Below are positions 5,150 to 26,298 of a DNA stretch of 28,991 bases, piece by piece; positions within the stretch are counted from its first letter, which is position 1; each line of letters begins with the position of its first letter. Location of the stretch: positions 124,001 through 152,991 of the forward strand of contig QPGO01000177.1 in the NCBI GenBank assembly GCA_008632985.1. Reading direction: 5' to 3'. The notes under the pieces are model-generated. The model was given only the letters and a program-made list of their open reading frames with translations, ran no database searches and was not told the DNA's origin. The stretch comes from Psammoneis japonica (taxonomy: Eukaryota). A program made the position numbers and the translations under genes.

Positions 5150-5357
5150 CTTCTGCAACTTACACAGTATTGAATGTATCATTTGTCGGCTAGTCATGCA
5201 GTTTCTCGCTAGTGGAAGATCAATGTGGATACAGCGTCCTACCAACTGCTTTACTTCTGCAACTTACACAGTATTGAATGTATCATTTGTCGGCTCGTCA
5301 TGCAGTTTCTCTCTAGTGGAAGCTCAATGTGGATACAGCATCCCACCAACTGCTTTA
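5150..5357. repeat. 104-bp direct tandem duplication (2 copies)
   Basis: cttctgcaacttacacagtattgaatgtatcatttgtcggct... starts at 5150 and again at 5254, with only a few substitutions. Confidence 0.92.
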
Positions 5358-5733
5358 CTCCAATAGCGTATTCCTTTCCTCGCTTGTAATCAATGACTTC
5401 CTTTGCAGCGTTATCACAATTTTTCGAATCACGTCGTCCTGGTCTGAGTCTTCCCTTCTCAAGTTGGGTAGGTTGTTTCATAAGACGTCCGACCTCCTAA
5501 ATCCCCAGGAGAACCTCAATGATTTTTGATTTATCTGCAGAACCAATGTCACGACAATGCGGGTTTAGATGGGACCATATTTTGTCATCCAGAATTCCGT
5601 CCACAAACGCTCCTTGCTTGCCAAAACCTTGAAAAAACAGAGTTGATCCCAGAAGAATCATCAAAACAGCACCCAATATTGTGTGAATAGATGTCGGAAG
5701 ATATTACTCTGCTCTTCAATCAAAGGGAACTTA

Positions 5734-6003
5734 TCATTGACTACTGCAACCGATGCAAACAGACGGTGGTGCTAGTTCGTATCTTGAGACGCAGAGGCGG
5801 TTGGAACAGTCAACTCTAGGAGAGTTGACAGTTGATTTCCCCGCAGCGACGGGTGCACGGATGAAGATTATATGATGCCCTTTTCTCGACGCTTCGTTTA
5901 CCATTCCTTTCAGCTTTCTGAACGTATCGACGAGCGGGATGAAGACACCATTCTCTGCATCAGCCAGGTCGAGAAGTACAGCTGTAAATTCAGCCACCGA
6001 CAT
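5734..6003 (-). pseudogene. Degenerate 5' fragment of a P-loop NTPase-like gene (remnant may continue to ~4950)
   Basis: MSVAEF...HIIFIRAPVAAGKST is a hydrophobic strand plus a Walker A-like AxxxxGKST. The frame is lost shortly afterwards. A second copy lies at ~17334-17650. Confidence 0.5.
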
Positions 6004-6044
6004 CTGTCATTGTCGTCTCGAAAGGGAATATCAGGCGTGACTAA

Positions 6045-6857
6045 GACCCGTCGCAGTCGTGGAAAATGGGTGTAATTCGGGTGTAATTTGGGGGTGTAAA
6101 AACGCGCATCGCGCGAATTTACACCCCAAAATTACACCCGATTTTCTCACGACTGCGAGAGTGTGAAATTGGATGTCTGTAATTCTGCGAGAAATGATAT
6201 ATCCATTCAATATATACTCCTCAAAAATTGTTGATAATTAACCAGGAATAACTCTATATCTCTAATTTTAATCAACTTATTTGTGCGCGAAGCTGAACAT
6301 TCTATTGACAGCATCGAAACACCATGGCGTTCGGCGGCTCCGCTGCGACCTTACGCATATCAAATCATTGTTCTGACAAGTCTAGTCCATTTAAAATAAC
6401 GTGATTAACATCATATGTTACTATTGTATCCATAGCCAAGGTTTCAGCGACTATATGACGTGTTTTTCTTCTGAAATGGCATGAACTTGCCTTCATTTTG
6501 TTGTTCGTTAATGGCAATCTCATCGTTTTTCGCCATTATTTCTTTCATAAATATATCATAATAGTTCCCCATCAACGAGTTCTTACATCGCTTACTGGTT
6601 GAAGTTCGTCGTTGATTGTTGGTTGCCATTGTTGTTCGACATTCTGATGTTTGTTGCCGTCATGGACGATGATGAGTCTGTTTTCGTACGAAAAATTACA
6701 GGCACTTACGAAAAATTACAGGCAAAAATTACATGCCTCAGGACGGGTAATTGTTGGCTGTAATTTTTTTTGAGGGGTGTAAAAACGCGCGTCGCGCGTT
6801 TTTACACCCCAAAATTACACCCCGAATTACACCCCTTCGTCACGACTGCGACGGGTC
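6045..6857. mobile_element. Non-autonomous TIR DNA transposon (MITE), PIF/Harbinger-like, 813 bp
   Basis: Ends GACCCGTCGCAGTCGTG... and ...CACGACTGCGACGGGTC are a perfect 17-bp terminal match with ~85 bp imperfect TIR. Flanked by TAA on both sides (6042-6044, 6858-6860), the 3-bp TSD typical of PIF/Harbinger. Subterminal (T)GTAATT repeats; no transposase-length ORF. Absent from paralogous sites (~8110, ~17660). Confidence 0.88.
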
Positions 6858-6889
6858 TAAGCCTTTTAGGTAGTCGCTGAAGAAGCGGT

Positions 6890-9600
6890 GTAAACACCGT
6901 GTTATTTTGTTGGGCCACATAACCTAATCCGAGATTTTTTGAATTTTGGCATGGATTATTTCGTCGTTGTGGAACAACGGGCTTCGCGGACAATGAATGA
7001 ACATCAAGGCCTTGCAGCGTCCAACAGCTGTTGTTGAACTTGACACAGAGAAGCATGCCATGGCACTTCAAGCACTCAGCAGGCTGAGTTCAATCACGTA
7101 AGAGAAGTGATGATCAGCCCACTCCTCCAGCCCCACTCCAGTTGTCACACACACATTTCTTGAACATTGAAGACCTCACTGCCTGAAATGTTTTGCCAGT
7201 GATTGCCTTCACCAAGGTGTTGAGATGACAGCACTGGACATGCACAAGAAGGGTGATTTGCATTGATCATGCCTGGCCTCTGCTGTTAGACAGCAACAGC
7301 AGGCAACCGTGCCATTGCCAGAACAAGAAGAGAGTTTTCCCTTGTCCAGCTTTGCTCACAGCAAGGAGTGCAGCTGATGCAAGTTTCCTTCCTCTCCTCA
7401 GCACCGCCAGTGCAGCTGTCATCAGCTGCACATGACAACACAAAGAGAGGCAAGTTTTGCCGCCAATTGTGCGATCTTCTCATTCAACGCTGCGGCAGCA
7501 CGAGCACATGTGCATTTGATGTCTTTTGGCTCTGTTTGCCTTCAGATTCTTGTTTGGGTTCTTTGTTCCATGCTTCTTGGGCCTTGTTTGGCTTGCTGCT
7601 GCTGATGTTGGCATTGTCTTTGCTGCCATGGCAAGCCTTGTTCTCTTTCTTGTGTGTGTCTTCCTTGCACTGCATGTCCATGTAAAACAAAAAACTGTGT
7701 CTTTTGACTGGAGGCAGAAAAGTGCAGCTGCTCACAACCTCCAATGCAAGCTCAGTGACAGCAGCTGTGGCATGCTTCCATGGCATGGGCTGAAGTCATC
7801 TCAGCAGCTGCCAACTCCAAGAACAGCCTCATGTTTTGCAATTTACAACATGCTTGGGTGTCAATGCAAGGCCCAGGGAGCACATCTGTTTTCATGTTGG
7901 TTGCGTGCTTTGTAAAAAGATTTGTCAGTTCACACATGGTGTCAAATGGAGCACATCTCCCTTGTTGCTGCTTGCTCACATGGAGCCATTGTGGTGCTGC
8001 TCTTTTGAAGCAACATTCTTGCTGGCGACATTTTCTTTCACAGAACATCCATGCCAGTCACACAAACAACAGGGTGCTGCACTGTAAATTCAGCCACCGA
8101 CATCTGTGTTGTCATCTCTTTTGGTTGCTGATGAAAAATGTCCACAAAAGACCACAACAGGAAACACCGTGTTGTTTTGTTGGGCCACACAGCCCAGTCC
8201 CATTCCATTTTGACATGGATTTTTGTTGTGGTGGAACACCGGGTTTTGCAACAATGAAAATCAAGGCCTTGCAGCATCCAACAGCAGCTGTTGAACTTGG
8301 CACAAAGAAGCACACCAGGGCACTTCAAGCACTCAGCAAACTGTGTTCAATCATGCAAGTGATCAGCCCACCTCAGCCATCACATTTTTTGAATGACCCA
8401 GGTGATGCTTGTGTGGTGGTGTCAGCACCATCACATCCACTTTTCATTGACCTTGCTGCCTGAAACATTTTGCCAGTCATTGCTTTTGCCAAGCTGTTGA
8501 GATGACAGCAGCGCTGGACATGCACAAGAAGGGTGATCTGCGTTGTTCATGCCTGGTCTCTGCTGCCAGACAGCAGCAACAGTCATGCCATCGCCAGAGA
8601 GAACAAGAGAAGAGAATCTTCTTTCCTTGTCCAGCTTTGCCCACAACAAGGAGTGCAGCTGTTGCAAGTTTCCTTTCTGTCCACAGCACCACCAGCGCAA
8701 ATGTCATCAGCTGTGCAAAATGACAAAAAGAGAGGCAAGCCTTGCTGCCTCTCTTTTTGTTGAGTGTGGCCATTTTTTCCAACCTCTCCATCAGCAAGCA
8801 CATGCAAAATTGATTTTTTTACTCTGCTTGCCTTCAGGTTCTTGTTTGGCCTCCATTTTCTAACCTTGATCACATCTTTTCCTGACTTCAAGCCAAGATG
8901 GGATGAACATGGGGCATTTGGCCATTTCAGCAATTTGTTGGGGGCAGCTTGCTGACACAAAGTTGTGGCTTTCTTTTTTCAAGTCTTTTTTGCAATTTGC
9001 ACTTTGGGCATTGGCTTGGTCCAAGACAACACAGCCATGACCCCTTGGCAACAGCCACAACCACTTCAGCAATTGCCCCACAGCCCCTCAGCAGACTGGC
9101 CACAAATCCCATTTCAGGTTGCGGGGTCATTGCCAGCTCTCATTGCTGCAAACTGATGATGAGGTCACACACATCTTCAATTCAGCTTCTTTGCTCTTGT
9201 TGTCAAGAATCTCAGAACAACTGAAGTGCCCAAAGGGCATGCCACAATTTGTCTGCTTGGCTCTGTCTTGACTTTGGCCAAGTTTTGAAAACTGCTGTTG
9301 TTGTCAACTCCAACAGTCTCATTTTGCAACTTGCAACTTGCAACATGCTTGGGTCAATGGTCAATGCAAGGCACAGAGTGCTGTCATGAGTGAGCACATC
9401 CATTTTTGTGTGGGCGTCATGTGTTTCACAAAGAGATTTGTCAGTTCACACATCATGGCATCAAATGGGTGCATCTTTCTTGTCACTTCTCATCCAGATG
9501 GAGCTGTTCTTGTGCTGCTCTTGAAGCAATGTTGCTCCTGGTGACATTTTCTTGCACAGAACATCCATGCCAGTCACAAACAAAAATCCTTGTGCCTTGG
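6890..9600. repeat. Internal ~1.2-1.5 kb tandem duplication within unit 1 (6890-8075 vs ~8083-9600; third copy at ~17630-19070)
   Basis: Shared anchors such as tcaaggccttgcagc(g/a)tccaacagc (7005, 8261, 17732), ggacatgcacaagaagggtgat (7236, 8516, 18005) and cacagaacat (8039, 9555, 19037). Confidence 0.88.
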
Positions 9601-12600
9601 TTTTCTGACAATGGCAAAGAATGGAAGGAGCTGCTTGCAAAGGATTTCATGCAAAGGTGAGGGTCTGAGTGGCTGGCCCAATCACTGTGTTCTTTGCATT
9701 TTTTTTTGCATTGACAGCTTGCATGGTCAGCCCAGCAACATGTCCTTTGACACTGCCACACATTTCTTCCACAAAAGAGTCTGGGTTTGCAAGAGAAAGT
9801 GATGGAATGCTTTGAAAAAGCTTCTGCAAGCTCTTTCCATGCATCAAACTGCATTCTCTTCATGGATTTTGTCACAGAGTCATGACGACAATTGAGATGA
9901 GACACCCTCATCATGACACCACTTGCAATGATGCAATGGACATGCCACAATGAGGGGTGGCTGTTCTGGCAAATGAGAAAATGAGTGTGATGCCAGTGAA
10001 GACACTCTTGTTGTGCTCACAAAGAAGTGAAATGACATGCAGTGACCAAATGCTGTCTTTATTTTCAGATCATGATCACCTTGGTTCTTTGGCCACTGCA
10101 GCCACCGTTCATGGTCAAGGTCCCATTTTTTTTTTCAAGGGCGCAGTTGACCCATCAAATTTTGGTTTGACAGCATCAGAAAGCAAAGTCAAGGTGTTGC
10201 AAAAGGGCTTGAAAAACTCTCTTGCTTCATTGTCAAAGTCCAGGGTTGCCTTGAAAACAGGCCCACCTGGACCAAGCTTTCTGCCCTCCTGACCAAATGT
10301 TGTCTGCTGCTGCTTTGTTTCTTTTGGAGAGAAAAAGATGTGGGTGCATCATCTTGTGGGGCTTGGGGGGACAACTTGGTGCCATTGTGTTGTGAGGAGA
10401 TTTGCCAGAGTTGGTGGCAGGCAAGTGGCTGTCTTTTTGTTGTTGGATGAGTCATGTCCTCTGATTTGTTGCTTAAAAAATCTTTTTGCATGAGTTCACA
10501 ACACTCCAAAAATCATTGACAACATTGACAAACAACTGAGGGTCACCACAAGTTTCACATGGCAACCATTGTTTGAGAAGCCTGCAGTTGTTGGCAATCC
10601 ATGATTTTGGAGTTTCTGTCCAGCCCTCTGCTTCACAGTGAGATGGCAGGCTCATGAAAAGGCACTGCATTGCAAACCCAACACCAGGGGCATTGGCAAA
10701 ATTGTGTTGCTGCTGGGTGGAAATTGATTTCTGAGATGAAAGAGTGTTTTGAGTTGCATCAAACAGACAGTGCATTTTTGGACTGCTGCTGCTCAAGTGT
10801 GGGCACATTCAAGCAATTTAAAAACCATCAAGGCTGAGCAACACCAAGCTGTTTGGTGGCATCTGGGCACACTGCCAAACACATGATGCATTTGTGCCAA
10901 AATTGTGTCTGCAGAAATGTCGTGAGAAAACAAGAGTGTCAGAGGGAGATGGGCTAAAAGCAAATGAAGTGCATGGGAGATAAAAACAGCATTGATGATG
11001 AGCACCAAAAAGAGATGCAGGGAAAGCAATGCCAAGATGTTGCACAAGGGTGCAAAAGACAGAAAAAGAAACACACCCAAGTCAGCAAAACATGAGATGG
11101 TGGAATGACAAAAAGTCCACCCTCCTCACTGCTGGGGTTGCTCTTGGCCATTTTGAACCTGCCTGGTTGATCTCCACCTTGTTGCTGTTTGGACCCTTTT
11201 CATTGGGTTCAGCAGGGCCAAACCCTCTTGTTGGGCTCCACAAGCATGCAGGGCATGCACCTGCAGAACCCTGCATTCCAAATCTGGCAAGTGCAAAAAA
11301 CCTCACCTGGGCCATGTCTTGCCAGCACTGCCCACCCTGGGTTGAGGACAACACATGTGCACCACAAGGCAAGAGGTTGGTTGCCATGATGGTGAGCCAC
11401 TGCTTGTGATGAAAGAAGAAAGAGTCAAGCACTGAGCAATCCTCATCTGTGCACTGTGCACTCTTCCAACTTCCAAAACACCTGCCAAAAAGAAAAAAGA
11501 ACCAATTCACAGGGGTTTTGTTCTTTGCACATTCTTCAACACTGTCATTTGTTGCTTGCACCACTCAAATCTTGTGTTTTCCATGCCCCCAGCTGGGGTC
11601 TGCCATCTGCCATGAGTCATCTGGACCTGTTGGCAAGTGTTGCTGCTGTCATTGAACAACAGCTGTTTGGCAACAATTTTTGTTTTTGGAGCTCATGTTT
11701 GGCTGCCAGGATCCTCAAAAGCAACCTCACAACTGTGATGACAACTGCAGAAGAAGTCAGGCACTGGGAGAAGGTGGTTCTCCAGGAGTGTGGGCTCTGA
11801 GAGCATGGAGTTGCACATGATGTGACTGTGGCAACAGCCTCTGCTCTCATCAAAGAGTTCTCAGTGCTGGTCAGGTTGGCCTGAAGGTCAAACATGGTGT
11901 CAAACCATTGCTCATCATCTGAGAGCTTGTGACTGACCACAACAGATGGGTCTCAAGTGTTGTTGCTGGCAAGCATTGTGACACAGGAGGGAAGAAAGTC
12001 CCGCTGGACTTTCTTGTGCAGTTGCACAGACCCAATGCACAGCAGCCCACATCGCCTCCCACAATGCCCCCATTGATGCTGCAATCTGCTGCAGTGCACT
12101 GGTTTTGGACAAACTGTGAGCAGAAATGCAGAGCAGATGATGCTGTGGTCATTGACATGCAGAGGACTTGGATTTGTCCTGTGTTGTGTGGCAAAAGATG
12201 CTTTCACGGGCATTTTTGGCCACAGCAGAAAAAGCAAATCCTTTGGAAGCAACAGCTTGCATTGCACCAAATGTGCAAAAGAATGGGGCTCCTGTCTTGT
12301 CAAGTGCAGCTGCATTTCCAGCAGAAGGGGCACATCAGCACCAGCAGATTCTGGAACAGCAGAAGCAACACCATGAGGAGCATCACTGTCTCTCCCCACA
12401 CCAAGGTCACTTGGGTTGACAGCTGCCAAAATTGGGAATTGCCAGCCCCCAGGTTCAAGAAGGACAACAGCCATGGTGGAGGATGAAGGAGAGAATCCCA
12501 CATGCACTGGGTGGGCTGAGGGATGCAATGCCAGCTGCTGGTCTTTCACAAGATTGGGCCCCTGAAAGCAGGGTGCTTTTGCACTGCAAGGGCCCGGGTG

Positions 12601-14150
12601 GCACAAGCTTGGACAACATGGGCATCACTGTCAATGTCAAAGAACAAGCCATCATCTTGCATTGGGAGGTGTGGGGGTCATGGGCTTGGGCAGAGCACCA
12701 TGGCATGGAGTGTGGGGCATGCACTTTTGGGGCAAAGGTGCCATTGTGCTGAGCAGCCACAGAAAGCAGGAGGCTTTGCAGCTGCTTGCAAGCAAGGCTG
12801 TGACTGTTCCATGTGGTGCAGTGCTGACATGCACTGCTCCTGACTCCTGACTGCATGGAGTTCTTTGAAAGCATGGTGGGTTGCACTCTCAGGCATGACA
12901 CTTTTCTGTCCAAGACAGGAGCCACCCAAGGTTGGGATCAATGCTTCATGCTTGCACAGCTGATCTTGCCAACACAGAGCACAAAACCTTGTGCAGAAGA
13001 GCATGCTCAGGTGGCTTGTGGCACATGGCTTGAGCATCAGACAAAGCAATGATGTGCTTGCAGGTGAGGGCCTTGCTTTTGGTGCCAGTCACTGAGGTGC
13101 ACTTTCAGTGCTCATCAATCACAGAGGCTGTGGTCTTCAAGAGCAGAAGGAAAACAACACCTTCTTGCTGTCAAGCAGTGCAGGCAAGAAGCCCCCCCCC
13201 ATGCAGAGACTGCTGCAGGTGCCAAGAGACGTGGCATCACATGGCCGGTGCTGTTGTTGTTTCTTGCCAGCCACTTGACTTGTGAGCAAAAAATGCAAAA
13301 TGTGAGCACAAGTGCAAAAAGCTGATGGAACGCAGGGTTCAAGTCACCACTGTCAACATGTTTGCTTTTTTGGCATGTCGTGCACACAGTTCTCAAGGCT
13401 TTTGCAAAGTTCAGGGCCAGTGCCATGTCTTGGTGGTTGCTTGACAAGCAACCTTGCAAGGTCAATCTCCAACATGCAGCATTGCCTCTGCTCCAAATTC
13501 ACTGGCAAGGGCAGACAGGATGGTTTTTTTTTCGAGACACCTGTTTTTGTGAGCTCACAATGTCTTTTCAAACTCAGGGTGAGCCCATTTTGTCTTCTGT
13601 CCAACACAAGTTGCTGCAAATGCAGCCTGACATGTGGCAAGACAGGCACAACTGGTGGTCAGCCTGTTGACAACAAAGGCAGAAAATGCAAACAAGGTGG
13701 TGCAACACACCACACACTGGGGGTCCTCAAACTGGTGCCAGCAGCAACAGAAAGCCAAAAGAAAGACAAGCTCCATCATGACAGCACACAATTTTCAAGC
13801 CCATGAAGGTGCAGTTTGCCCATGAAGGTGCAGTTTGCTCTTGCAAATGTTGCGAGTGCAGTTGTGCTGGTTTTGTTTGCACCGCCAAGCCTGATTTTTG
13901 GCACGACTCAAAGAACTGCGCTTTTTCTGGCAGCCCCTCATGCCAGCAAGTTTGCTGTGACTGAGTGCACGGCATGCATGTGCAAAAATGCAGCACAGTT
14001 TGCAAGCCACTGCAGCAACTGCAGCTGCAGCTGCAGCACAAGATCTCTGGCTCAAAAAACTTGACAAAAAAAGAGCATTGTGAGAGGAAACCGAGAAGGA
14101 AATGACAAGCTCATGTGTCAGACAGAAGGGTCGCACTCACAGCTGAAGCA
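7100..14150. other. CpG- and TpA-depleted, TG/CA-enriched eroded block (copy 1); probable fossil genes or TE
   Basis: Manual count for 12481-13080 (600 bp): 0 TA and 1 CG. ORFs here are nearly devoid of Tyr and rich in C/H/Q/W/M. Borders are gradual. Confidence 0.9.
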
Positions 14151-14560
14151 GGAAGGACCACGCGCTGTGTTGGAGGGCATTCACGCATGATGTGTCCTTG
14201 TGTGTTCTTCACCCCAATCATTTAGGCCAGTCCACTAATGCGAACCCCATGTGACACAGAAGAAAAGACAAAGAATCTCTCTGCGAGCCATCGGGACCAC
14301 CTGTCAGCGTAATGTCGTGGTTACTTAACAATGATTCTTTCATTTACTTCAGGGAATTCTCGTTTACAAGTCATTCTCAAAATACCCAGTCGTTAAATAA
14401 GAAGTCATAATGAGCTTTTTCCCTTTTAACGACTATTTGGAGTTCGCATTGGGTCCACTCATCCGCGATCTCACGAACTCATCACCGTGACTTTTCTGCG
14501 TTGCTCACAAACTCTCCTCACAAAAAAAAACAAAGACAAGTAAGAGTGAAACAGAAAAAC

Positions 14561-15673: not shown

Positions 15674-16032
15674 AGAGCGAGGGACGACGAAAAACATTCC
15701 ACGATGAAGTCAAGTTTGCGCAATCTTGTTTAGGAATAAAATAGTCTATCTACATGTTTAGCACCTCGTAATCTTATTTTTGTTCACGCAAACACCACAA
15801 TTTACGTTGTAGCTCTCCACCAGCACTACACTATTTGTGCCTGTCGTTGACAAGCAACGACGAATTGTGATGTGTATCCCGCGTGGCCCCGTCACCTCAA
15901 ACCATGTACGGTGTGCGAATTGATATCGGTGCCGGGCATTTTCTATCGTATGTACTGCCATAGCGGTTGAGGACTCAACTTTGTCGACACTTCTATCCGC
16001 ATAGCGTTCCTCCAGTAGCGGTATCTCATGCA

Positions 16033-17270
16033 TTAGATCAACTGGTGGTGAGCGACTGGATTCGCTTTTGAATAGTGAATAATGTTGCTCACTTCATCCT
16101 TGACGTCTTTTGCGCATTTGAAAACGGGAATTCCAATGTCGTAGGGCTGCGTCGTTGCAGGTTCCTGTGAATCCGTTGTCTCGTCCTTCGCTTCTGATGG
16201 ATCTCCATTCAAGGGTTGAAATGGCTGCTCGATCAAATGTCCAATCTCTTCAATACCCAACAAACACCAAGATGCCACAGCCACAACCAATAACGTCGGT
16301 ATCGAGCCAAGCGTCTTGATGAGACCCAGCGGTAAGGTTCCGCACCATAGAGTCAAAAACCTGCTTGTATGTCTTGAATAGGACCATGGGACGGGCGTCT
16401 TGACAATCTTTTCACACGACGACAATGTATCCACCAATACATTGACATCATGAGACAACTCTGACACATGTGAGGCTTCCCAAAAGTCCATTCTCGAATC
16501 TGGATTTTCCATGGCCGCGTCATGAAGCGCCGTGTGCATGGCGTGACAAAGCATCATTGCCGGTTCCAGTGGGCTGCTGCTGCTGCTGTCCATATGAGAC
16601 GGAATCGGCTTGTCCATTTTGCCAGAAACACATGTATAGCAGAGGGCATCCGGATATGCTTGGATTAGATGCAAGAGTCGTGAGGAGCTCTTGGGTGCAC
16701 TCGGCTGAAGATAATTCACAACACCTAGGGTTAGCTTTCGACAGGTTGACATGCATTTCGTCCACACACCCCTTGCCTCCCAAAACCTTGAATACGCCGA
16801 GTTGGTCCGAAACACCAGGAGGAGACTCATAAAGCCGCCCAACATGGAGTGGACCGTGGTCGGAAGACTGAACGGACGGTGACTAGGATATAACGTGTGG
16901 AATACGACAGCCAATATACAGAGCAATATATCTGCCGCCAAATGAAATCGAATTCGTCTCAAGACAAAGGAGTTGGGTATCGAGAGAAAGTTTCTCAGCC
17001 AGTCGTCCGAGCTGTACCGAAGTCCACTCTCTACCGATGGGCGACGAGCCGTCGGAACAACCGATATAAATTAGCAATGGATGAAGCCAGATCTTGCTCT
17101 TGAGTGTATTGGTGGCTGACTCTTCTTGACAACAACCGCCACCGCTTGGGTTCAGACAAACCAAGCGGCGGTCTCGTGTTTGAAACCGAGCTTCGAAAGG
17201 CTGAGACACACAGCAACGTTGACAAGACGACTAGAATCCGCGCACGCATCATGGCCACTACTTTCATCAT
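16033..17270 (-). pseudogene. Bestrophin-like (UPF0187/YneE/VCCN-type) gene copy 1, frameshifted
   Basis: Near-identical to 24986-26221 but with a 2-bp insertion at ~17065 (ccgaTAtaaattagc vs ccgataaattagc). This splits it into ORFs 17031..17270 and 16033..16962. Native upstream sequence is cut off ~60 bp from the ATG. Confidence 0.82.
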
Positions 17271-17333
17271 TGAACGGAGCAGCTCCGGAACTTTGTAAGA
17301 TGGTCATTTTTTTCAATTGGAGGACCAGCAGAG

Positions 17334-17648
17334 ATTGTGTGAATAGAAGTCGGGAGATATTATTCTGCACTTCAATAAAAGGGAACTTATCATTGACTAC
17401 AACAACCAATGCAAACATACTTTGGTGCTAGTTCGTCTCTTGAGACGCAGAGGCGGTTGGAACAGTAAACTCTAGAGTTGATTTCCCCACAGCGACGGGT
17501 GCACGGATGAAGATAATATGATGCCCTTTACTCGACGCTTCGTTTACCATTCCTTTCAGCTTTCCGACCGCATCGTCGAGCGGGATAAAGACACCACTCG
17601 CTACGTCGAGAAGTAGGTAGGGCCTACTGTAAATTCAGCCGCCGACAT
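17334..17648 (-). pseudogene. Second, 3'-truncated copy of the P-loop gene fragment
   Basis: Homologous to 5678-6003 (HIIFIRAPVAVGKST readable on the minus strand). Has indels and is cut at the duplication junction. Confidence 0.5.
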
Positions 17649-17899
17649 CTGTCATTGTCGTGCTGATGAAAAATGTCCACGAGGAAACCACCTCGCTGTT
17701 ACCGTATTCCGAGATTTTTGGAATTTTGGCATCAAGGCCTTGCAGCGTCCAACAGCTGTTGTTGAACTTGACATAGAGAAGCATGCCATGGCACTTCAAG
17801 CCCTCAGCAGGCTGTGTTCAATCATGCAAGTGATCAGCCCACTCCAGCCCCACTCCAGTTGTCACACACCATTTCTTGAATGACACCCTGGTGGCGTGC

Positions 17900-20800
17900 T
17901 TGCATGGTGGTGTGAGAGCACCATCACATCCACTCTTCATTGAAGACCTCACTGCCTGAAATATTTTGCCATTCATTGCTTTCACCAAGGTGTTGAGATG
18001 ACATGGACATGCACAAGAAGGGTGATTTGCATTGGTCGTGCCTGGTCTCTGCTGCCAGACAGCAGCAACAGGCAGTCGTGTCATTGCCAGAACAAGAAGA
18101 GAGCTTTCCCTTGTCCAGCTTTGCTCACAACAACGAGCACAGTGGTTGTGAGTTGCTTTCCTTTTCTCAGTGCCACCAGCACAGTTGTCATCAGCTGCAC
18201 ATGAAGACACAAAGAGAGGCAAGTTTTGCCACCAATTGTGCGCGCTCTTGTCCTCTTTTCTTGTTCAGTGTGGCTGCACGAGCGCATGATGTGCATTTGA
18301 TTTCTTTTGGCTCTGTTTGCCTTCAGGTTCTTGTTTGGATTCTTTGTTCCAACCTTGACCATGTCTTTTCCTGACTTCAAGCCAAGATGGGATGAACGTG
18401 GGGCATTTGGCCATTTTGGCAATTTTTGTTGTGCAGCTTGCTGACGTGCTTGTTCTTGGGCCTTGTTCAGCTCACTGCTGCTGCTGCTGGCATTGTCTTC
18501 ACTGCCATGGCAAGCCTTGTTCTCTTTCATGCAGGTGTTTTCCTTGCACTTCATGTCCTTGTGAAACAAAAAACTGATGGCTTTTGACTGGAGGCAGAGA
18601 AGTGCAGCTGCTCACAACCTCCAATGCAAGCTCAGTGACTGCAGCTGTGGCATGCTTCTGCATCATGCTGAAGTCATTTTCATGTTCATCTTGGCTCTTG
18701 TCATAAAGAGTCTCACAACAACTGCCTAAAAAACATGCCACAATTTATCTGTTTGTCTCTGTCTTGATTTTGGCTGAGTTTTTGAAACTGCTGCAGCTGC
18801 CAACTTCAACATCCTCATTTTGCAATTTGCAACATGTTTCTTTGGTGCCAATGCAAGGCACAGGGAGCTGTGAATGAGCTCATCTGTTTTCACATTGGTC
18901 ACATGTTTTGTAAAGATGTTTGTCAGTTCACACACATGGTGTCAAATGGGGCACATCTCTCTTGTTGCTGCTCATCCACATGGAGTCATTGCAGTGCTGC
19001 TCTTTGGAAGCAATGTTCTTGCTGGTGACATTTTTTCACAGAACATCTGTGCAAGTTGCAAACAACAGAAATCCAGTTGACTTGGTTTCTCAACATTGGC
19101 AAAAAACAGGGGCAGCTGCTTGCAGAAAATTTCATGCAAAGGCAAGGGTCTGAGTGGTCAGCCTGATTCTTGTGCTCTTTGTGTTTTTTCCTGATGTTGA
19201 TGGCTTGCATGGCCAGCCCAACATGCTGTTTGATGCTGCTTTTTCTGCAACAAGAAAGGAGTCAAGGCTTGCAAGCGAAAGTGGTGGCATGCTTTGAAAG
19301 AGCTTCCACAAGCTCTCTCCACATCAGACTTCATTCTCTTTTGTGAACCTTGCCACAGAGCTGTGATTGCAAATGGGGTGAGGCACCCTCAACACCACTT
19401 GTCACATGACAGACTTGCCATGGGCTGTTCTGGCAAATGAGAAAATGAGTGTGACAGCACCAGTGAGGAAGCAAATGTTGTGCTCATGCAGAAAAGTGAA
19501 ATGATGTGCAGCGACCAAACACTGTGTTTGTTTTCAGCTCACAACCTCTTGGTTCTTTGGCCACTGCAGCCACCATCCATGGTCATGGTCTCATTTCTTT
19601 CAAGGGCACAATCAACCCATCAAATTTTGGTGCTTCAGCATCAGAAAGCAAAGTCCAGGCATTGCAAAAGGACTTGCAAAACTCTTCTGCTTCATTGCCT
19701 GAGTTCAGGATTGTCTTGAAAACAGGTCCACCTGGGCCAAGCTTTCTGTCCTGACCAAATGTTGTCTGCATCTCTTTGGGAAAGAAAAAGATGTTGTTGG
19801 CACATCATCTTGTGGGGTTTTGGGAACAACTTGGCACCACTGTGTTGTGAGAAGATTTGCAGGAGTTGGCAGTGGGCAAGCAGCTGTCCTTTTTTGTTGA
19901 AGTCACATCCTTTGAGTTGCCTTTAAAGAAACCACTTTTTGCAGGAGTTCAAAGCACTCTGAAAATCATCAACAATGCTGATGAACAACTGAGTGTCACC
20001 ACAAGCTTGAGATGGCAACTGTGTGAGAAGCCTGCAGTTGCTGGCAATGATGTTGAAGTTTCTGTCCAGCCCTTTGTTGCACAGTGAGATGGCAGGCTCA
20101 TGAAAAGGTGCTGCAGTGCCAACCCAGTGCCGGGGGCATTGGCAAAAATTTGTGTTGCTGCTGGGTGGAAATCAAGTTCTGAGATGAAACAGCATCTTGA
20201 CTTGCATCAAACAGACACTGCATTCTGGGGCTCCTTCTGCTCAAGTGTGGGTGCATCCAAGCAATTTAGAAAAACTGCTGGGACCAGCATTGCCGAGCAA
20301 TTTGGCAGCATTTTGGCACCAAACACACATGGTGCATTCATGCAGAATTGTGTGTGCAGAAATGGCATGGGAAACAAGGGTGGTGATGAGAGATGGGCTA
20401 AAAAAAATGAATCTAAATTTCAAGCGCTGTTGCTCCATTGCCAGCTGTGCTGGCACCAGTTAAAAATTAAAAACAGAAGCTTGCAAGGATCAGCCAAGGT
20501 TGGCACCACCTTGTTGCAATGCACTCACCTGAGACAACTGGTGTTTGTTGCTTTCTTTTTTGACTGGAGCAGCAGTTGCCACACCACAACAGCAAAGGAC
20601 AGAAGTGCTCAGAAATTGGCTCAACAGCAGCACAAGAAATGAGATGGGCTGCCAGACCACAGACTTGCACTTGTCAAAAAGAGGCCTGGTTTTACACCAA
20701 GTGGTGCAGCAGCAACAGAAATGTTGCCACGCATGGAGCAGGGAGCTTGGCATGCCAGCAAGTGAGGGAGGGGTTGTCCAGGACTGGGAGGTGAGAAGCA

Positions 20801-23050
20801 GGAGCACTTGATGACATGATGAGTTGGTTGTCAGAAGAAACATTCATCTCATGCAGAAATGATGCCAAAGCTCTCATGGAAGTGCTGGTGCATGCAGGAA
20901 ATGGACGCATCTGCCAAATGATGTGGCTTGTTTTCTCTTGCTCATGTGTGTTGCAATGGAGGTGGCACTTTCACTGCTCAGAGTGAAGGACTTGACAGGC
21001 CAGCAGGGAGAGAAAAGATTGTTGGGGGTGGACGGGTGTGGACAAGAGCTGTTCTGAGATTTGACTGTGTGATCGTTGGAGGATGTTTCAGGAGCATGCA
21101 GAATTTGTGCTGAAACCTGCTTGGAAATTGCACTGAACTGGCAGAAAATTGCTGGAAAAGTCAACAGGCTTGCAATCCACAAGGCATTGATGCCAGTTGG
21201 TTTCCACTGGAAAATGTCCCTTGTCATGCTGCAACAAGGTTGTGCCATCAGCAGAGATGGCTAAAATGTGCTGGTGCGACCCAGGGAGAAACCATCTGAG
21301 AAGGGCAACATCAATGCAAAAGGGCATGCAGAAACACACACAGAGGCTGAGGGTGAGCAGCTGACATCAAAAAGTGAGAGATGCTGAAAGCAAATGAAGT
21401 GCAGAAGACCAGCAACAATGATGTGCACAGAGATGCCAAGAAAGCAATGCCAAGATGTTGTGAGGGCACAAAAGAGAGAAAAAGACACACACACACACAC
21501 CCCAAAACATGTGCTGCATTGCCAAAAGCCCACACCCTCCTCCTTGCTGGGGTCACTCTTGGCCATTTTCAACCCACCTCTGGTTGGTCTCCACCTCATT
21601 GCCACTTGGGCCCCCCTTGTTGGGCTCCACAAGTGTGCGGGTCATGCAGAGTTCTGCACTCCAGATCTGGCAAGGAACCTCACCTGGGCCATTTTTTGCC
21701 ACCATCCATCCTGGATTGAGATCAATGCATGCACCACAATGCAAGAGGTCAGCCACCATGTTGCACTGCTGCTGAATGATGAAAGGAAGAATCAAGCCCC
21801 AAGCGGTCCTTGCCTGTGCACTGTGCACTCTTTCAAAACACCTGCCCAAAAGAAAAACAAACAAGGCCAAAAGAAAAAAAAAACACACAAGGGTTTTGTG
21901 TTTGCACACTCTCAAACCCAAACATTTGTTGCTTGCATTGCCCACATCTTGTGTCTTCCATGCCCCCCAGCTGGGGTCTGTGCCATGATTCATCTGCTGA
22001 ACCTGCCAGCAGATGTTGCCATTGTCATTGAATGGCGACTCTTTGGCAAGAAGTCATGGCACATTTTTGTCATTTGACAATTTTTGTTTGGATCTTGTGT
22101 TTGGATGCTGGGATTCTTGGAAGCAACCTCATGATTGTGACAACTGCAGAAGAAGAAGTTGGGTGCTGGGAGAAGGTGGTTCTCCAGTGTGAGCTCTCTG
22201 AGAGCATGGAGCTGCACATGATGTGACAGTGGCAACAGCCCCTGCACTCATCAAAGAGTTCTCAGTGCTGATCAGGTTGGCCTGGAGGTCAAACATGGCC
22301 ATCAAACCATTGCTCATCATCTGAAAGCTTCCAGCTGACCACAACAGGTGGGTCCTGAGCATTGTTGCACCAGCAAGCATGACAGAGAATTGAGAGGTTG
22401 TGCGGCAATGGACAGCATCCCACATCACCACCCTCAATCCTCCTGTTGATGCCAAGATCTGCCACAGTGCCAGCTTTGGACAAGCTGTCAGCAGAAAAAC
22501 AGAGCAGATGATGCTGTGGGGTCATTGACATGTTGGCTGGTGTGCAACTTGGATTTGTCCTGTGTTGGTTGCAACAAAAGCAGAAAGTGCAAACAAAATG
22601 CAGTGCGCCACGCATTGGAGGGTCCTCTCACTGATGCCAGCAGCGGCGGCAGCAAAAATCCACAAGAAAGACAAGCTCCAACATTGCAGTGCACAACTTT
22701 CAAGCTCACAAAGGCACAGCTCGCTGTTGCAAACTTCCACAGGCACAGCTGTGCTGGCTTTGTTTGTGCTGTCAAGCCTGGTTTTCTGGTGCCCCTCCCC
22801 CTGTGCCTGTCTCAAGGAGAGCCACACTTTTTCTGGTGGCCTCTTGTGCCCATCTGTGGCTGTTTCCTGTGACTGAGTGTGCCACGTGCAGGTGCAAAAA
22901 TGCAAAGCAGTTTGCAAGCCACCACAATTTTTGCAGCTGCAGCACAAGATCTTTGTGGCTCAAAAGACTTGGCAAAAAGAGTGTTGTGAGAGGAAGCCAA
23001 GAAGGAAATTAGAACATGTCAGACAAAAGGGGGGCACACTCAGCTGAGGC
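17900..23050. other. CpG- and TpA-depleted eroded block (copy 2)
   Basis: Same dinucleotide signature as copy 1 and collinear with it, but highly diverged from it. Confidence 0.9.
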
Positions 23051-23526
23051 AGGAAGGGCCATGTGTCATGTTCATTCAAGCTGGTCGAAGACATCGCCGC
23101 CGAGGGACATTCATGCATGATGTGTTCTTGTGTGTTCTTCACCCCAATCATTTGGGCCAGTCCATCAATGCGAACCCCACGTGATGAAGACGACAAAGAA
23201 TGAATCTCTCTGTGAGCCAACCGGACCTGCCGACCACCTCCTGTTCCATGGTTTAGCGCATGATGTGGTAGGTGGGTATTTAACAATGACTCTTTAACAT
23301 ATCTTTTTACTTTTTCAAATGAATGCTCTTTTATAAGTCATTGTCTCTAAATAAGAAGTCATAATGAGCTTTTAACATTTAACGACTCTATTTTTGGAGT
23401 TCGCATTGGGTGCACTCATCCGCGATCTCATTGATCATCGAACTCATCGTCACTTTTCAGCGTTGCTCACAAACTCTCCAAAAAAAAAAAAGAACAAAGA
23501 CAAGAGTAAGAGTGAAACAGAACAAT

Positions 23527-24645
23527 ATGAAAATCGTTTACCAGCGCCTCTTGGCCCTCGCCTTCTTGATATCGGTCAAATGCCTCTACGTTGTTGCGCA
23601 AGGGACACCGCAGTGTAACTTTCCTCCAATCAACAAGAACAAGGACAGGGGCGTCTATCTTTGGAACGACTGCTTTTCCGATCAGTGGCATGTTCGGGTC
23701 GTTGCTGGAAAGCAACAGGCAGCGGTGGTCGATGGTACGTTTGATGCTGAGGTTAAGGATGGCTTGAGAGTGAACAAACTCTATTTACTTGAGGCAAAAT
23801 TGGGAGACAAGGCGACAGCTTCGGGCTTCCAATTCAACGTGGGCAAAAAGGACATTGATGGCTTCGATTTCAAAACCTCAAAAGGGAAAGTGTGCCTAAC
23901 TATCAACTCTCCAGATGATATTCCATTTTACATCGGCAAAACCAAGCTGCAGTATCCCAAATCCATCAGTATTCCCGGCTACAAGCCTTGTGGCGGACCT
24001 CTGATGGAATACAAGTTTGACAGTCCTAGGAGGATAGGGTCAAGCATCAACATTGACACAGGAGAAAAGGGATGGAACGGCAAGGTTGTTGGGTATGCCC
24101 ACTATCGTGACGGATTTTCCAAACATGGTATGGGCCTTGACGGAAGGGATGACTACATGCTCATTCCTGCTTCTACGGATTTGCAGTTGAAGAACTATAC
24201 CTTGATGGCCTGGGTGCGGTACGAGGATCCTTATAAGCCTGGGAACTCCCAATGGATTATTCAAAAGGCAGCAGCAATTGGTCTCAACATAAGGCAGGAC
24301 ACCCGCCATGTAAGGACAGGTGGCTTTTTTGGGGGTTGTGGCAAAAATGACTTGGTTCAATTGGATAGCACCAAGACAGTTCCAACAGAAACCTGGACGC
24401 ACATTGCAGCAACCAAGGATCAAGAGAAGCTGACACTCTACATCAACGGTGAAAACGTCGGGGAGAAGGTACTCCCTAAACCTAATCACTACTGTGTCAA
24501 CAAGGGGCCGTTCAACATTGGCGCCAGTTATCTTGGTTCGAAGGTGGCACCGGGCACATACTTTGATGGAACGCTCGACAACGTCCGTGTCTACGACAAA
24601 GCTCTGGACAAAGGCGAAATTTTTTCTGAAATGTTTCGTCAATAG
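23527..24645 (+). CDS. Secreted LamG/concanavalin A-like domain protein, copy 2 (372 aa)
   Basis: Intact paralogue of 14561-15673 with the same signal peptide and LamG motifs; ATG at 23527. Confidence 0.9.
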   Translation: MKIVYQRLLALAFLISVKCLYVVAQGTPQCNFPPINKNKDRGVYLWNDCFSDQWHVRVVAGKQQAAVVDGTFDAEVKDGLRVNKLYLLEAKLGDKATASGFQFNVGKKDIDGFDFKTSKGKVCLTINSPDDIPFYIGKTKLQYPKSISIPGYKPCGGPLMEYKFDSPRRIGSSINIDTGEKGWNGKVVGYAHYRDGFSKHGMGLDGRDDYMLIPASTDLQLKNYTLMAWVRYEDPYKPGNSQWIIQKAAAIGLNIRQDTRHVRTGGFFGGCGKNDLVQLDSTKTVPTETWTHIAATKDQEKLTLYINGENVGEKVLPKPNHYCVNKGPFNIGASYLGSKVAPGTYFDGTLDNVRVYDKALDKGEIFSEMFRQ

Positions 24646-24985
24646 AGAGGGACGACGAAAAGCGTTCCACGATGAAGTCAAGTTTGCGCAGTCTTGTTTA
24701 GGGATAAAATAGTTCCATTTACATGTTTTGCACCTCGTAATCTTATTTTTGTTCACGCAAACACCACAATTTACGTTGTAGCTGCACTACACTGTTTGTG
24801 CCTGTCGTTGACAAGCAACGACGAATTATGATGTGTATCCCGCGTGGTCACCTTCACCTCAAACCATGTACGGTGTGCGAATTGAAATGTGCTTCTACCG
24901 TATATACTCCCATAGCGTTTGAGAGACTCAACTTTGTCGACACTTCTATCCGCATAGCGCTCCTGCAGTAGCGGTAGCTCCTGCA

Positions 24986-26221
24986 TTAGATCAACTGGTT
25001 GTGAGCGACTGGATTCGATTTTGAATAGTGAATAATGTTGCTCACTTCGTCCTTGACGTCTTTTGCGCACTTGAACACGGGAATTCCAATGTCGTAGGGC
25101 TGCGTCGTTGCAGGTTCCTGCAAATCCGTTGTCTCGTCCTTCGCTTCTGATGGATCTCCATTCAAGGGTTGAAATGGCTGCTCGATCAAATGTCCAATCT
25201 CTTCAATGCCCAACAAACACCAAGATGCCACAGCCACAACCAATAACGTTGGTATCGAACCAAGCGGCTTGATGAGACCCAGCGGTAAGGTTCCGCACCA
25301 TAGAGTCAAAAACCTGCTTGTATGTCTTGAATAGGACCATGGGACGGGCGTTTTGACAATCTTTTCACACGACGACAATGTATCCACCAATACATTGACA
25401 TCATGAGACAACTCTGACAAATGTGAGGCTTCCCAAAAGTCCATTCTCGAATCTGGATTTTCCATGGCCGCATCATGAAGCGCCGTGTGCATGGCGTGAC
25501 AAAGCATCATTGCCGGTTCCAGTGGGCTGCTTCTGCTAGTGTCCATATGAGACGGAATTGGCTTGTCCATTTTGCCAGAAACACATGTATAGCAGAGGGC
25601 ATCCGGATATGCTTGGATTAGTTGCAAGAGTCGTGAAGAGCTCTTGGGTGCACTCGGTTGAAGATAATTCACAACACCCAGTGTTAGCTTTCGACAGGTT
25701 GACATGCATTTCGTCCAAACACCCCTTGCCTCCCAAAACCTTGAATACGCCGAGTTGGTCCGAAACACCAGGAGGAGACTCATAAAGCCGCCCAACATGG
25801 AGTGGACCGTGGTTGGAAGACTGAACGCTCGGTGACTAGGATATAGCGTGTGGAATACAACAGCCAATATACAGAGCAATATATCTGCCGCCAAATGAAA
25901 TCGAATTCGTCTCAAGACAAAGGAGTTGGGTATCGAGAGAAAGTTTCTCAGCCAGTCGTCCGAGCTGTACCGAAGTCCGCTCTCTACCGATGGGCGACGA
26001 GCCGTCGGAACAACCGATAAATTAGCAATGGATGAAGCCAGATCTTGCTCTTGAGTGTATTGGTGGCTGACTCTTCTGGACAACAACCGCCACCGCTTGG
26101 GTTCAGACAAACCAAGCGGCTGCCTCGTGCTTGAAACCGAGCTTCGAAAGGCTGAGACACACAGCAACGTTGTCAAGACGACTAGAATCCGCGCACGTAT
26201 CATGGCCACTACTTTGATCAT
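24986..26221 (-). CDS. Plastid-targeted bestrophin-like anion channel (UPF0187/YneE/VCCN/BST family), 411 aa
   Basis: Family motifs LLLVFRTNSAYSRFWEAR, PVPWSYSRHTSRFL and GIEEIGHLIEQPF. N-terminal signal peptide ends CVSA|F (ASAF-type cleavage motif) and is followed by an S/R-rich transit peptide. Confidence 0.93.
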   Translation of the reverse strand: MIKVVAMIRARILVVLTTLLCVSAFRSSVSSTRQPLGLSEPKRWRLLSRRVSHQYTQEQDLASSIANLSVVPTARRPSVESGLRYSSDDWLRNFLSIPNSFVLRRIRFHLAADILLCILAVVFHTLYPSHRAFSLPTTVHSMLGGFMSLLLVFRTNSAYSRFWEARGVWTKCMSTCRKLTLGVVNYLQPSAPKSSSRLLQLIQAYPDALCYTCVSGKMDKPIPSHMDTSRSSPLEPAMMLCHAMHTALHDAAMENPDSRMDFWEASHLSELSHDVNVLVDTLSSCEKIVKTPVPWSYSRHTSRFLTLWCGTLPLGLIKPLGSIPTLLVVAVASWCLLGIEEIGHLIEQPFQPLNGDPSEAKDETTDLQEPATTQPYDIGIPVFKCAKDVKDEVSNIIHYSKSNPVAHNQLI

Positions 26222-26298
26222 TGAACGGAGCAGCTCCGGAACTTTTAAGTGGTCATTTTTTCGATTGGAGGACCCAGGAAGATGATGGCGGCAGAAAA

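Follow-up and report, generated by a model that had tools for sequence, protein, structure and literature searches.

The window, that is, the whole stretch of 28,991 nucleotides analysed here, carries two colinear units arranged head-to-tail. Unit 1 (5678..17333, 11.66 kb) is directly followed by unit 2 (17334..26283, approximately 8.95 kb). The colinear chain obtained by self-BLAST and MAFFT, running from 5678 to 17326-17333 and from 17334 to 26274-26283, agrees with the initial annotation in placing a single junction at 17333/17334. The left breakpoint was located, as the same sequence starts at 5678 and at 17334 and the DNA preceding each of these positions is unrelated, and the right end of the homology lies at 26274-26283.

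Each unit contains a LamG gene, a spacer and a bestrophin gene, all of normal composition. The LamG (concanavalin-A-like) gene, on the plus strand (copy 1, 14561..15673, with a hydrophobic N-terminus; copy 2, 23527-24645), matches Pfam Laminin_G_3 in both copies (4e-26 and 3e-27), which share 89% protein identity with a dS of 0.151 and a dN/dS of 0.30. The bestrophin gene, on the minus strand (copy 1, 16033..17270, Pfam Bestrophin_2 at 6e-51; copy 2, 24986..26221, Pfam at 3e-53), shows a dS of 0.085 and a dN/dS of 0.18. The 411-codon frame of copy 2 is intact and its named matches are diatom proteins. In copy 1, a 2-base insertion (17064-17065) shifts the frame after codon 68, and a contig of run X2 spanning 15767-17313 aligns with no gap at this insertion. 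The two genes converge, and their 3′ ends are separated by the spacer of 359 bases (15674..16032, copy at 24646-24985), with normal TA and CG content. As initially annotated, these elements remain highly similar, with 71 mismatches over 1113 aligned bases for the LamG CDS, 37 over 1236 for the bestrophin CDS and 23 over 337 for the spacer (JC 0.072, six indel events). Each unit opens with unmutated non-coding DNA, segment A (5678..6016, copy at 17334-17661), in which 38 of 328 aligned bases differ, by 18 transitions and 20 transversions (JC 0.126). Unit 1 alone harbors an uneroded MITE-like insertion (6041..6861) with 41-nt terminal inverted repeats, 88% complementary, and normal TA and CG content; its contig depth is 474, compared to 61-75 in its surroundings.

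That the two units stem from haplotypes joined in error or from an artefact of assembly, with no tandem duplication, seems to us extremely improbable. Among the contigs listed, which are short-read contigs from the only sample for which runs were found, possibly the source of the assembly itself, none bridges 17333/17334. However, the transition from unit 1 to unit 2 contains neither shared sequence nor N, which an overlap-based assembly would not yield. Contig depth, which does not equate to copy number, is comparable between the flank (74.9) and the two units (approximately 61-92). Allelic differences are usually much smaller than those observed here between the units, namely a synonymous divergence of 0.085-0.15, kb-scale indels and a MITE private to unit 1. 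The reading that we hold to be probable is a real tandem segmental duplication, apparently in a diatom genome, with genes under selection and a block-bound mutation process, erasing TA and CG, that continued after duplication.

Limits and composition of the eroded blocks

Each unit also contains a block in which TA and CG are strongly depleted. In block 1 (7000..14130), both dinucleotides are almost erased and TG/CA reach approximately 1.9 times their expected frequency; the limits of block 2 (17746..23085) correspond by homology to the block 1 limits, within approximately 50 bases, the limits being resolved to approximately 100 bases. Only 13 TA and 39 CG are found between 7000 and 14100, CG reappearing at 14132 and TA at 14223, and the approximately 3.2 kb from 10982 to 14222 are devoid of any TA. 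Similarly, 14 TA and 30 CG remain between 17850 and 23050 in block 2, compared to 39.5 TA per kb in the unmutated DNA of the window. Measured over 500-base windows, the observed/expected ratio (O/E) is 0-0.14 for TA in the blocks versus 0.3-0.85 outside, and 0-0.30 for CG versus 0.4-1.55 outside, while TG/CA reach 1.7-2.06 in block windows. The G+C content of the blocks is 0.44-0.54, versus 0.40-0.51 in the flanks. The surviving TA are not a random sample, since 26 of the 27 lie within TAA or TTA, versus 38.5% in unmutated DNA (p = 3e-10). This bias suggests a process that acts on TA selectively.

No credible Pfam match was obtained for the reading frames of the blocks, either among the 125 frames of at least 70 codons or among 44 frames at E ≤ 1, and heavy mutation could mask one; the transposon origin and the silence of the blocks are thus assumptions. 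The two blocks also differ by large segments. The eroded segment 12195..13665 is absent from unit 2, from which it was probably deleted at a 7-base microhomology. Conversely, the eroded segment 20412..21377 is found in unit 2 only, flanked by a direct repeat of approximately 25 bases present only once in unit 1, and its counterpart was therefore probably deleted from unit 1.

Divergence of genes, spacer and blocks

The duplication provides an internal clock, consisting of synonymous sites, transversions and unmutated flanks, all of the same age. The initial annotation described the blocks as differing at many sites and by many indels, which is borne out by ungapped p-distances of 0.12-0.24 and 84 indel events over approximately 4650 block columns. 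The indel density is, however, similar in unmutated non-coding DNA, with 19 events over approximately 1140 columns, and transversion densities are also similar throughout. The transversion rate is 0.081 in eroded versus 0.108 in unmutated non-coding DNA for target columns, and 0.030 versus 0.034 for the other columns. Outside TA/CG/TG/CA columns, 253 of 1858 block columns differ (0.136), and transitions there are approximately 1.6 times higher in the blocks than in unmutated non-coding DNA (0.107 versus 0.067). Neutral divergence between the units is approximately 0.09-0.15 substitutions per site, and the background clock is shown to be equal across genes, flanks and blocks.

Based on the contrast between similar genes and divergent blocks, the annotation had considered purifying selection alone an unlikely explanation. 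As stated, this is mostly unsupported. The dS values of the genes are comparable to the divergence of segment A and of the non-target columns of the blocks, and their dN/dS ratios account for their similarity: the genes are alike through purifying selection. The annotation had relied on the spacer being non-coding. The spacer does diverge less than segment A (0.068 versus 0.116 differing, Fisher p = 0.043), but modestly so, and its value equals the dS of the neighboring bestrophin gene. Partial constraint on the spacer is plausible, given that it forms the 3′ end of two convergent genes. The true contrast is therefore narrower than initially proposed: it is a transition excess confined to the blocks, a large part of which falls at former TA/CG steps as coupled pairs. 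Among 250 purine columns with a T/C difference at their 5′ neighbor, 214 are themselves A/G differences.

Divergence is nevertheless uneven along the units. The bestrophin pS (0.080, 23/287) is lower than that of LamG (0.137, 33/241; Fisher p = 0.046), and the bestrophin dS, the spacer (0.072) and repeat B1 compared to its unit-2 copy (JC 0.129) stand at approximately half of the values of C, D and the LamG dS. This unevenness may result from old gene conversion or from rate variation. A stronger version, in which gene conversion between the units homogenised the genes and the spacer, so that their low divergence would reflect a younger effective age and not selection, is unlikely in our view. 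It would account for the lower divergence of bestrophin relative to LamG and of the spacer relative to segment A, and the spacer does contain one identical run of 54 bases (P = 0.011). However, the longest identical runs in the genes (bestrophin, 119 bases, P = 0.57; LamG, 101 bases, P = 0.06) fit random placement; no conversion tract, sought as an over-long identical run, was detected in the genes, and the whole genic part gave P = 0.10. In addition, the LamG dS equals the background divergence of the blocks, the dN/dS ratios suffice for the high nucleotide identity, and conversion would not produce the loss of TA and CG in the blocks.

Erosion after duplication and the role of position

TG in one unit is opposed to CA in the other at 110 of 3964 aligned block columns versus 2 of 3349 outside (Fisher p = 4e-27), which shows that the erasure of TA and CG continued separately in each copy after duplication, as the annotation had proposed. 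The example it gave, AAGAGCATTGTGAG at 14071 and AAGAGTGTTGTGAG at 22977, is exact. The annotation also expected such sites to allow reconstruction of the ancestral sequence. They do mark a former TA or CG, as directly demonstrated by the three-copy columns in which one copy kept the original dinucleotide and the other two show TG and CA (four with CG, one with TA), but two copies alone cannot separate TA from CG. The orientation of discordant sites displays no strand-coherent runs (53 runs versus 55.3 expected); each site and strand was struck independently.

The third copy is provided by an internal repeat. Repeat B2 (8081..9583), located wholly within block 1, is an older paralogue of B1 (6892..8072) and of the unit-2 copy (17626-19068), with odd-one-out transversions of 112 for B2, 26 for the unit-2 copy and 17 for B1. 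The left end of B1 (6892-6999) is located outside block 1 and retains TA and CG, as does that of the unit-2 copy (17652-17730), whereas the copy lying within block 1 (8108-8262) has lost TA, once to TG and twice to CA, as well as CG. The same sequence is thus eroded inside the block and intact outside, showing that position, and not copy number, decides the erosion. Erosion is also absent from segment A, the spacer and the duplicated genes, and from the MITE, which is multi-copy.

The onset of erosion relative to the duplication was estimated in two ways. A two-copy model (q = 0.076) gives 257 targets intact at duplication, or 65 per kb versus 99 per kb in the unmutated DNA of the window; it predicts 1.5 columns retained in both copies, compared to the 7 observed. 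From the three-copy odd-one-out counts (17, 8 and 6), 58% of the targets were intact at duplication, and the excess of the first count indicates some erosion before the large duplication (p = 0.036). About 60-65% of the target dinucleotides are estimated to have been intact at that time, and, judging from paralogue divergence, they subsequently decayed approximately 19-fold faster per base than background.

A RIP-like process, in which duplication would itself provoke mutation of the repeated DNA, would be compatible with the fact that the mutated DNA is duplicated, with the older internal duplication B1/B2 within the block, and with estimates that permit an onset only shortly before the large duplication. 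We consider it highly improbable. Mutation is absent from the genes, the spacer, segment A and the left ends of repeat B, which are just as duplicated; TA is destroyed and not created, G+C is not lowered, the discordant sites lack strand coherence, and part of the erosion, from the three-copy counts, appears to predate the large duplication.

A second alternative is that only ordinary methylated-CpG decay operated after duplication, TA being already rare for other reasons and no TA mutator being at work. It finds support in columns caught in mid-change: 28 columns of the block alignments have CG in one copy only, versus 8 in which a TA faces TG or CA, and contig variants in the blocks mostly oppose CG to TG or CA. 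CpG methylation of repeats is, moreover, documented in diatoms (PMC5124317). Direct evidence for TA loss after duplication is indeed thin, consisting of these eight columns and a few polarised sites in the leftmost part of repeat B. These columns do exist, however, and the in-block copy of repeat B lost TA as well as CG while the outside copies kept both. The scarcity of TA, its total absence over 3.2 kb, the TAA/TTA bias of the survivors and a G+C content not lowered as CG loss alone requires are also at odds with a CpG-only process, which we regard as improbable.

Proposed mechanism and comparison with known systems

We propose that each unit consists of two genes under purifying selection and, between promoters, a 5-7 kb block presumed to be silent. 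A mutation process bound to the chromatin domain of the block would act there only; TA and CG would become TG or CA through independent hits, each on one strand at a single site. It would have been under way before the duplication, and would then have approached saturation separately in the two copies. The CG component could correspond to the deamination of 5-methylcytosine within a repeat domain that is methylated, and the TA component to an A-to-G change, probably through adenine deamination in DNA by a putative enzyme sparing TA beside A or T runs. Taken as a whole, this would be a diatom defence by DNA editing, guided by chromatin domain, targeting adenine at TpA (sparing TAAA/TTTA) and 5-methylcytosine at CpG, activated in a silent block whatever its copy number, operating at approximately 20 times the background until targets are exhausted, and functionally related to the TpA hypermutation reported in a chlorarachniophyte, a relation under which editing of adenine in DNA would be widespread among algae as a genome defence. 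We advance this full reading tentatively, its chances being in our judgement slightly short of even.

The locus separates two ideas that composition cannot, namely position in a bounded domain and repetition or sequence identity. That the mutator follows position is hard to reconcile with RIP-like triggering and suggests guidance by chromatin. The clock yields the onset of erosion relative to the duplication, its rate and the independence of sites and strands. If the TA component is an enzymatic editing of adenine in DNA, the locus would extend a process hitherto described in a single preprint, for one unrelated alga.

RIP, known from Neurospora and other fungi, introduces C-to-T changes, thereby generating TpA and reducing G+C, and acts on whatever is duplicated. 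The process described here resembles it in its dense dinucleotide-specific transitions, wrecking repeated or silent DNA, and in the sharp limits between mutated and unmutated DNA. It differs in that TpA is destroyed in blocks whose G+C is not below that of the flanks, and in that the duplicated genes, spacer, flank and outer copies of repeat B are spared.

As in methylated-CpG decay, CG is converted into TG or CA within a domain. In diatom genomes, CpG methylation is reported to be binary, marking repeat domains and absent from gene-rich regions (PMC5124317), and the blocks likewise form multi-kb domains ending near gene promoters, with untouched genic DNA beside them. Unlike in such decay, TA is also removed here, and block methylation is itself presumed.

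The closest parallel is found in Bigelowiella natans, in which TpA-to-TpG/CpA hypermutation of silent inserted giant-virus and virophage DNA was measured directly and for which a DNA adenine deaminase has been put forward by the authors (Mettrop et al., bioRxiv 10.64898/2026.01.13.699255). According to the accessible part of this preprint, both systems share the change of TpA to TpG or CpA on either strand, local confinement to silent regions adjoining normal genes (silence being assumed here), and a long-term mark of depleted TpA alongside elevated CpA + TpG in clusters. The hosts differ, a diatom here and a chlorarachniophyte there, and the target at our locus holds no recognisable viral or transposon protein. 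CG is erased here together with TA, a G:C-to-A:T change, so that the changes are not exclusively A:T-to-G:C; the term CpG does not occur in the accessible preprint text, which does not mention the sparing of TAA/TTA either. The rate is derived here from paralogue divergence and there from mutation-accumulation lines. Finally, the depletion is near total in the diatom blocks, with an O/E of approximately 0-0.1 versus the 0.45 given for their NCLDV region.

The tandem duplication

The window was treated as nuclear DNA of a diatom on the basis of the relatives of its intact bestrophin frame (copy 2, 24986-26221, minus strand). This frame matches Pfam Bestrophin_2; the relatives that carry names come from diatoms (Seminavis, Cyclotella, Fistulifera, Thalassiosira and Bacillariaceae), and the best unnamed hit has 60% identity. 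To the left of the duplication lie two adjacent genes with DUF7467/DUF7507 domains (541-4912), which carry long proline/threonine-rich repeats of 12- to 120-base periods and have a normal composition, and MORN-repeat genes lie to its right. Just left of the duplication, in unmutated DNA, positions 5150-5359 hold two tandem 105-base units that are 95% identical.

Self-comparison yielded one colinear chain, pairing 5678-17326/17333 with 17334-26274/26283. The identical start sequence of both units, at 5678 and 17334, is preceded by unrelated DNA in each case, which bears out the single head-to-tail junction at 17333/17334 proposed in the initial annotation. Among the contigs listed, which are short-read contigs from one sample, none bridged this junction; their depth was 74.9 in the left flank and approximately 61-92 in most bins of both units. 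Wrongly joined haplotypes, the alternative origin of such a structure, are unlikely given that the junction links unrelated sequence without any N, that synonymous divergence between the units reaches 0.085-0.15, and that the units differ by kilobase-scale indels.

Unit 2 lacks the 821-base MITE-like element carried by unit 1 at 6041-6861, which is bounded by 41-nt terminal inverted repeats of 88% complementarity and contains GGTGTAA-type subrepeats. Its contig depth of approximately 474, versus 61-75 nearby, indicates that it is multi-copy, and its insertion was probably recent. Each unit also contains an eroded segment that the other lacks (12195-13665 in unit 1, 20412-21377 in unit 2), whose edges, with short direct repeats or microhomology, suggest deletions in the opposite unit. 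Repeat B, of about 1.3-1.5 kb, is present twice in unit 1 (B1, 6892-8072; B2, 8081-9583) and once in unit 2 (17626-19068). Over 1021 columns, the odd one out by transversions was B2 in 112 cases, B1 in 17 and the unit-2 copy in 26. On transversions alone, B1 and the unit-2 copy thus group together with B2 as outgroup, so that the B1/B2 duplication predates the large one and a copy was later lost from unit 2.

Bestrophin copy 1 carries a 2-base insertion (17064-17065) causing a frameshift after codon 68, and its native upstream DNA is gone beyond 63 bases, with segment A of unit 2 in its place. Between the two copies, dN/dS is 0.84 upstream of the frameshift and 0.12 downstream. Copy 1 may have become a pseudogene recently, or its translation may begin at a start codon further downstream.

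Composition and divergence of the eroded blocks

Two blocks, one in each unit, have lost nearly all TA and CG. In 500-base windows covering 7001-14000 and 18001-23000, observed/expected ratios were 0-0.14 for TA, 0-0.30 for CG and 1.7-2.06 for TG/CA, with G+C unchanged at 0.44-0.54; in the rest of the window, TA ranged from 0.3 to 0.85 (1.23 in one 500-base window) and CG from 0.4 to 1.55. Only 13 TA and 39 CG are left in 7000-14100, and TA is entirely absent over 10982-14222. Both blocks have sharp limits, placed to within about 100 bases, and these limits are homologous between the units, on the left at ~7000 and ~17746 and on the right at ~14130 and ~23085. The right limit lies about 430 bases upstream of the LamG start codon in each unit. 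Block 2 has a gene 5' end on either side, that of bestrophin copy 1 and that of LamG copy 2, and so takes up the interval between two divergently oriented promoters.

Pfam scans of the blocks returned chance-level matches only, both for 125 frames of at least 70 codons (E up to 0.01) and for 44 frames of at least 100 codons (E up to 1), the best match being a cysteine-rich domain below its cut-off. The long open frames of the blocks do not count as evidence for genes, because the absence of TA leaves TGA as the sole stop. When the segments private to one unit were compared by BLAST in purine/pyrimidine coding, which ignores transitions, the result was likewise short chance matches only; the best of them, 20704-20883 versus 20948-21128, is not a repeat at the nucleotide level.

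The duplicated genes and non-coding DNA provide a clock for these blocks. The LamG copies (14561-15673 versus 23527-24645) showed a dS of 0.151 and a dN/dS of 0.30 over 370 codons, and the bestrophin copies a dS of 0.085 and a dN/dS of 0.18 over 410 codons. Jukes-Cantor (JC) divergence was 0.126 in the unmutated non-coding segment A (5678-6016 versus 17334-17661; 18 transitions, 20 transversions), 0.072 in the spacer between the two genes (15674-16032 versus 24646-24985; 23 mismatches in 337 bases, 6 indel events), and, within the blocks, 0.13 for B1 and 0.23-0.29 for two further aligned segments (C and D) and the tail preceding LamG. Background block divergence was determined by removing every column in TA, CG, TG or CA of either copy; 253 of the 1858 columns left differed (0.136), equal to the LamG synonymous difference of 0.137. 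Transversion rates in eroded versus unmutated non-coding DNA were 0.081 versus 0.108 at target columns and 0.030 versus 0.034 at other columns, and indel events numbered 84 in ~4650 block columns versus 19 in ~1140 unmutated non-coding columns. The matching background divergence, transversions and indels thus assign one age to all parts of the unit. The many indels initially described for the blocks are present but not special to them, their density being that of neutral DNA of the same age.

The initial annotation had considered purifying selection an unlikely cause of the contrast between genes and blocks. The dN/dS values of 0.30 and 0.18 do not sustain this view, since the likeness of the gene copies is, by this measure, attributable to the removal of amino-acid changes by selection. 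Gene conversion would be another way of keeping the genes alike; no conversion tract was found in them, and identical runs reached at most 119 bases between the bestrophin copies (P = 0.57) and 101 bases between the LamG copies (P = 0.06). A run of nominally significant length, 54 bases (P = 0.011), occurs in the spacer only. This spacer, in which two convergent genes have their 3' ends, shows somewhat lower divergence than segment A (p = 0.043), at a level equal to the dS of the adjoining bestrophin gene. Divergence varies along the unit. Transitions at columns other than those of the four target dinucleotides were also about 1.6 times as frequent in the blocks as in unmutated non-coding DNA (0.107 versus 0.067). 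These non-target transitions, in B1, C, D and 13666-14130, were highest after a 5' G or A, and comparison of B1 with the unit-2 copy, with B2 as outgroup, revealed no direction (A>G 15, G>A 13).

Discordant sites and the timing of erosion

Columns with TG in one unit and CA in the other numbered 110 in the blocks, split 61 one way and 49 the other, versus 2 across the ~3350 bases aligned in flank, genes and spacer (p = 4e-27). This difference upholds the earlier proposal that erosion continued independently after duplication. Among the purine columns preceded by a 5' T/C difference, 214 of 250 were A/G differences too, and paired transitions, 220 in number, account for 30% of all 729 mismatches in the blocks. 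A discordant column needs a TA or CG ancestor, resolved on a different strand in each copy. The reconstruction of ancestral CG/TA anticipated from such sites is therefore possible for the TA-or-CG class, but does not extend to the choice between the two at each site. Three-copy columns show such ancestors directly: where the other copies read TG and CA, one copy keeps CG in four cases and TA in one.

Successive discordant sites formed no strand-coherent tracts (53 runs versus 55.3 expected; runs test z = -0.45), and this random orientation implies that sites were struck singly, on either strand. A 2-base inversion, which would convert TG into its reverse complement CA, was rejected as the source of discordance, as it leaves the loss of TA and CG unexplained. 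Assigning ancestors from flanking bases put the share of TA at 0.95 and scored a pure CG origin 5 log-likelihood units lower, a result not relied on because the flanks are eroded too. Polarising B1 versus the unit-2 copy by B2 failed at target sites, B2 having resolved the same sites independently. Among the 74 discordant sites with conserved flanks, 16 read G[TG/CA]C, with GTAC or GCGC as ancestor, a share about four times that of GTAC or GCGC in unmutated DNA.

Targets were retained in one copy in 36 columns and in both copies in 7, alongside the 110 discordant columns. A simple decay model, crude in that it assumes even strand choice and predicts 1.5 doubly retained columns versus the 7 seen, gave a survival of 0.076 per lineage since duplication and 257 targets intact at duplication, or 65 per kb. 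Compared with 99 TA+CG per kb in unmutated window DNA, approximately 66% of targets were intact at duplication if the ancestor resembled the flanks. Odd-one-out counts in the three copies of repeat B (17 for B2, 8 and 6; p = 0.036 against equality) gave 58% at the large duplication, a figure independent of the two-copy model. By these estimates, erosion started before the duplication and mostly took place after it. The hazard per target base was ~1.29 per lineage versus a background of 0.068, a ratio of about 19.

Within the blocks, the contigs from run X1 depart from the window sequence at 7310, 7497, 7681-7682, 8513, 8541, 13230 and 17905, mainly as CG versus TG or CA, with one TG-to-CA double change at 7681-7682. 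These differences may be allelic, in which case they would hint that erosion is still under way.

Position, sequence preference and known systems

The left end of repeat B occurs in three copies. TA and CG persist in the two that lie immediately beyond the block limits (6892-6999 and 17652-17730) but have been lost from the one inside block 1 (8108-8262); the B1/B2 comparison showed TA->TG once, TA->CA twice, CG->TG three times and CG->CA once. Erosion has spared the duplicated genes, the spacer and segment A, and also the multi-copy 6041-6861 element, whose TA and CG content is normal although it lies about 130 bases from the eroded block. The spared duplicated DNA and the repeat B ends contradict a RIP-like duplication trigger and point to a bounded chromatin domain. 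Position, not copy number, decides erosion at this locus.

In the comparison of 6892-7000 with 8162-8262, TAA in the unmutated copy twice reads CAG in the eroded copy, so the A following the TA step had changed to G as well. A 26-nt motif, CTGTAAATTCAGCCRCCGACATCTGT, occurs at 5982-6007, 8082-8107 and 17627-17652, identical in the three copies except for one A/G position. The copy within eroded block 1 keeps TA and CG, and the surrounding sequence is only about 73% identical. The motif could mark a site that is protected or functional, or one end of an element.

The TA that survive in the blocks (7000-14220, 17776-23250) lie in TAA or TTA in 26 of 27 cases, versus 38.5% of the 641 TA in unmutated window DNA (p = 3e-10) and 46% expected under a random origin of new TA from CA or TG (p = 3e-8). 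They adjoin an A or T run of at least two bases in 22 of 27 cases, versus 82 of 641 in unmutated DNA. This bias reads as a sequence fingerprint of the mutator; no mention of it was found in the text of a preprint on Bigelowiella (bioRxiv 10.64898/2026.01.13.699255).

The loss of CG fits deamination of 5-methylcytosine. Diatom genomes are described as having hypermethylated repeat domains, mainly CpG, beside gene-rich unmethylated DNA (PMC5124317). Since the losses of TA and CG end at the same limits, one silent-chromatin domain might license both processes.

Full-text literature searching turned up no account of TA erasure in diatoms, and the chlorarachniophyte preprint is the sole described relative in that search. 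In this preprint, two silent viral inserts of Bigelowiella natans acquired 231 new mutations, of which 230 were A-to-G or T-to-C at TpA, at a rate of ~6e-7 per site per generation, and its authors propose DNA adenine deamination (bioRxiv 10.64898/2026.01.13.699255). This TpA hypermutation is the one described parallel to the loss of TA in the blocks. The present locus adds an internal clock, a split between events before and after duplication, a rate and a clean test of position versus copy number.
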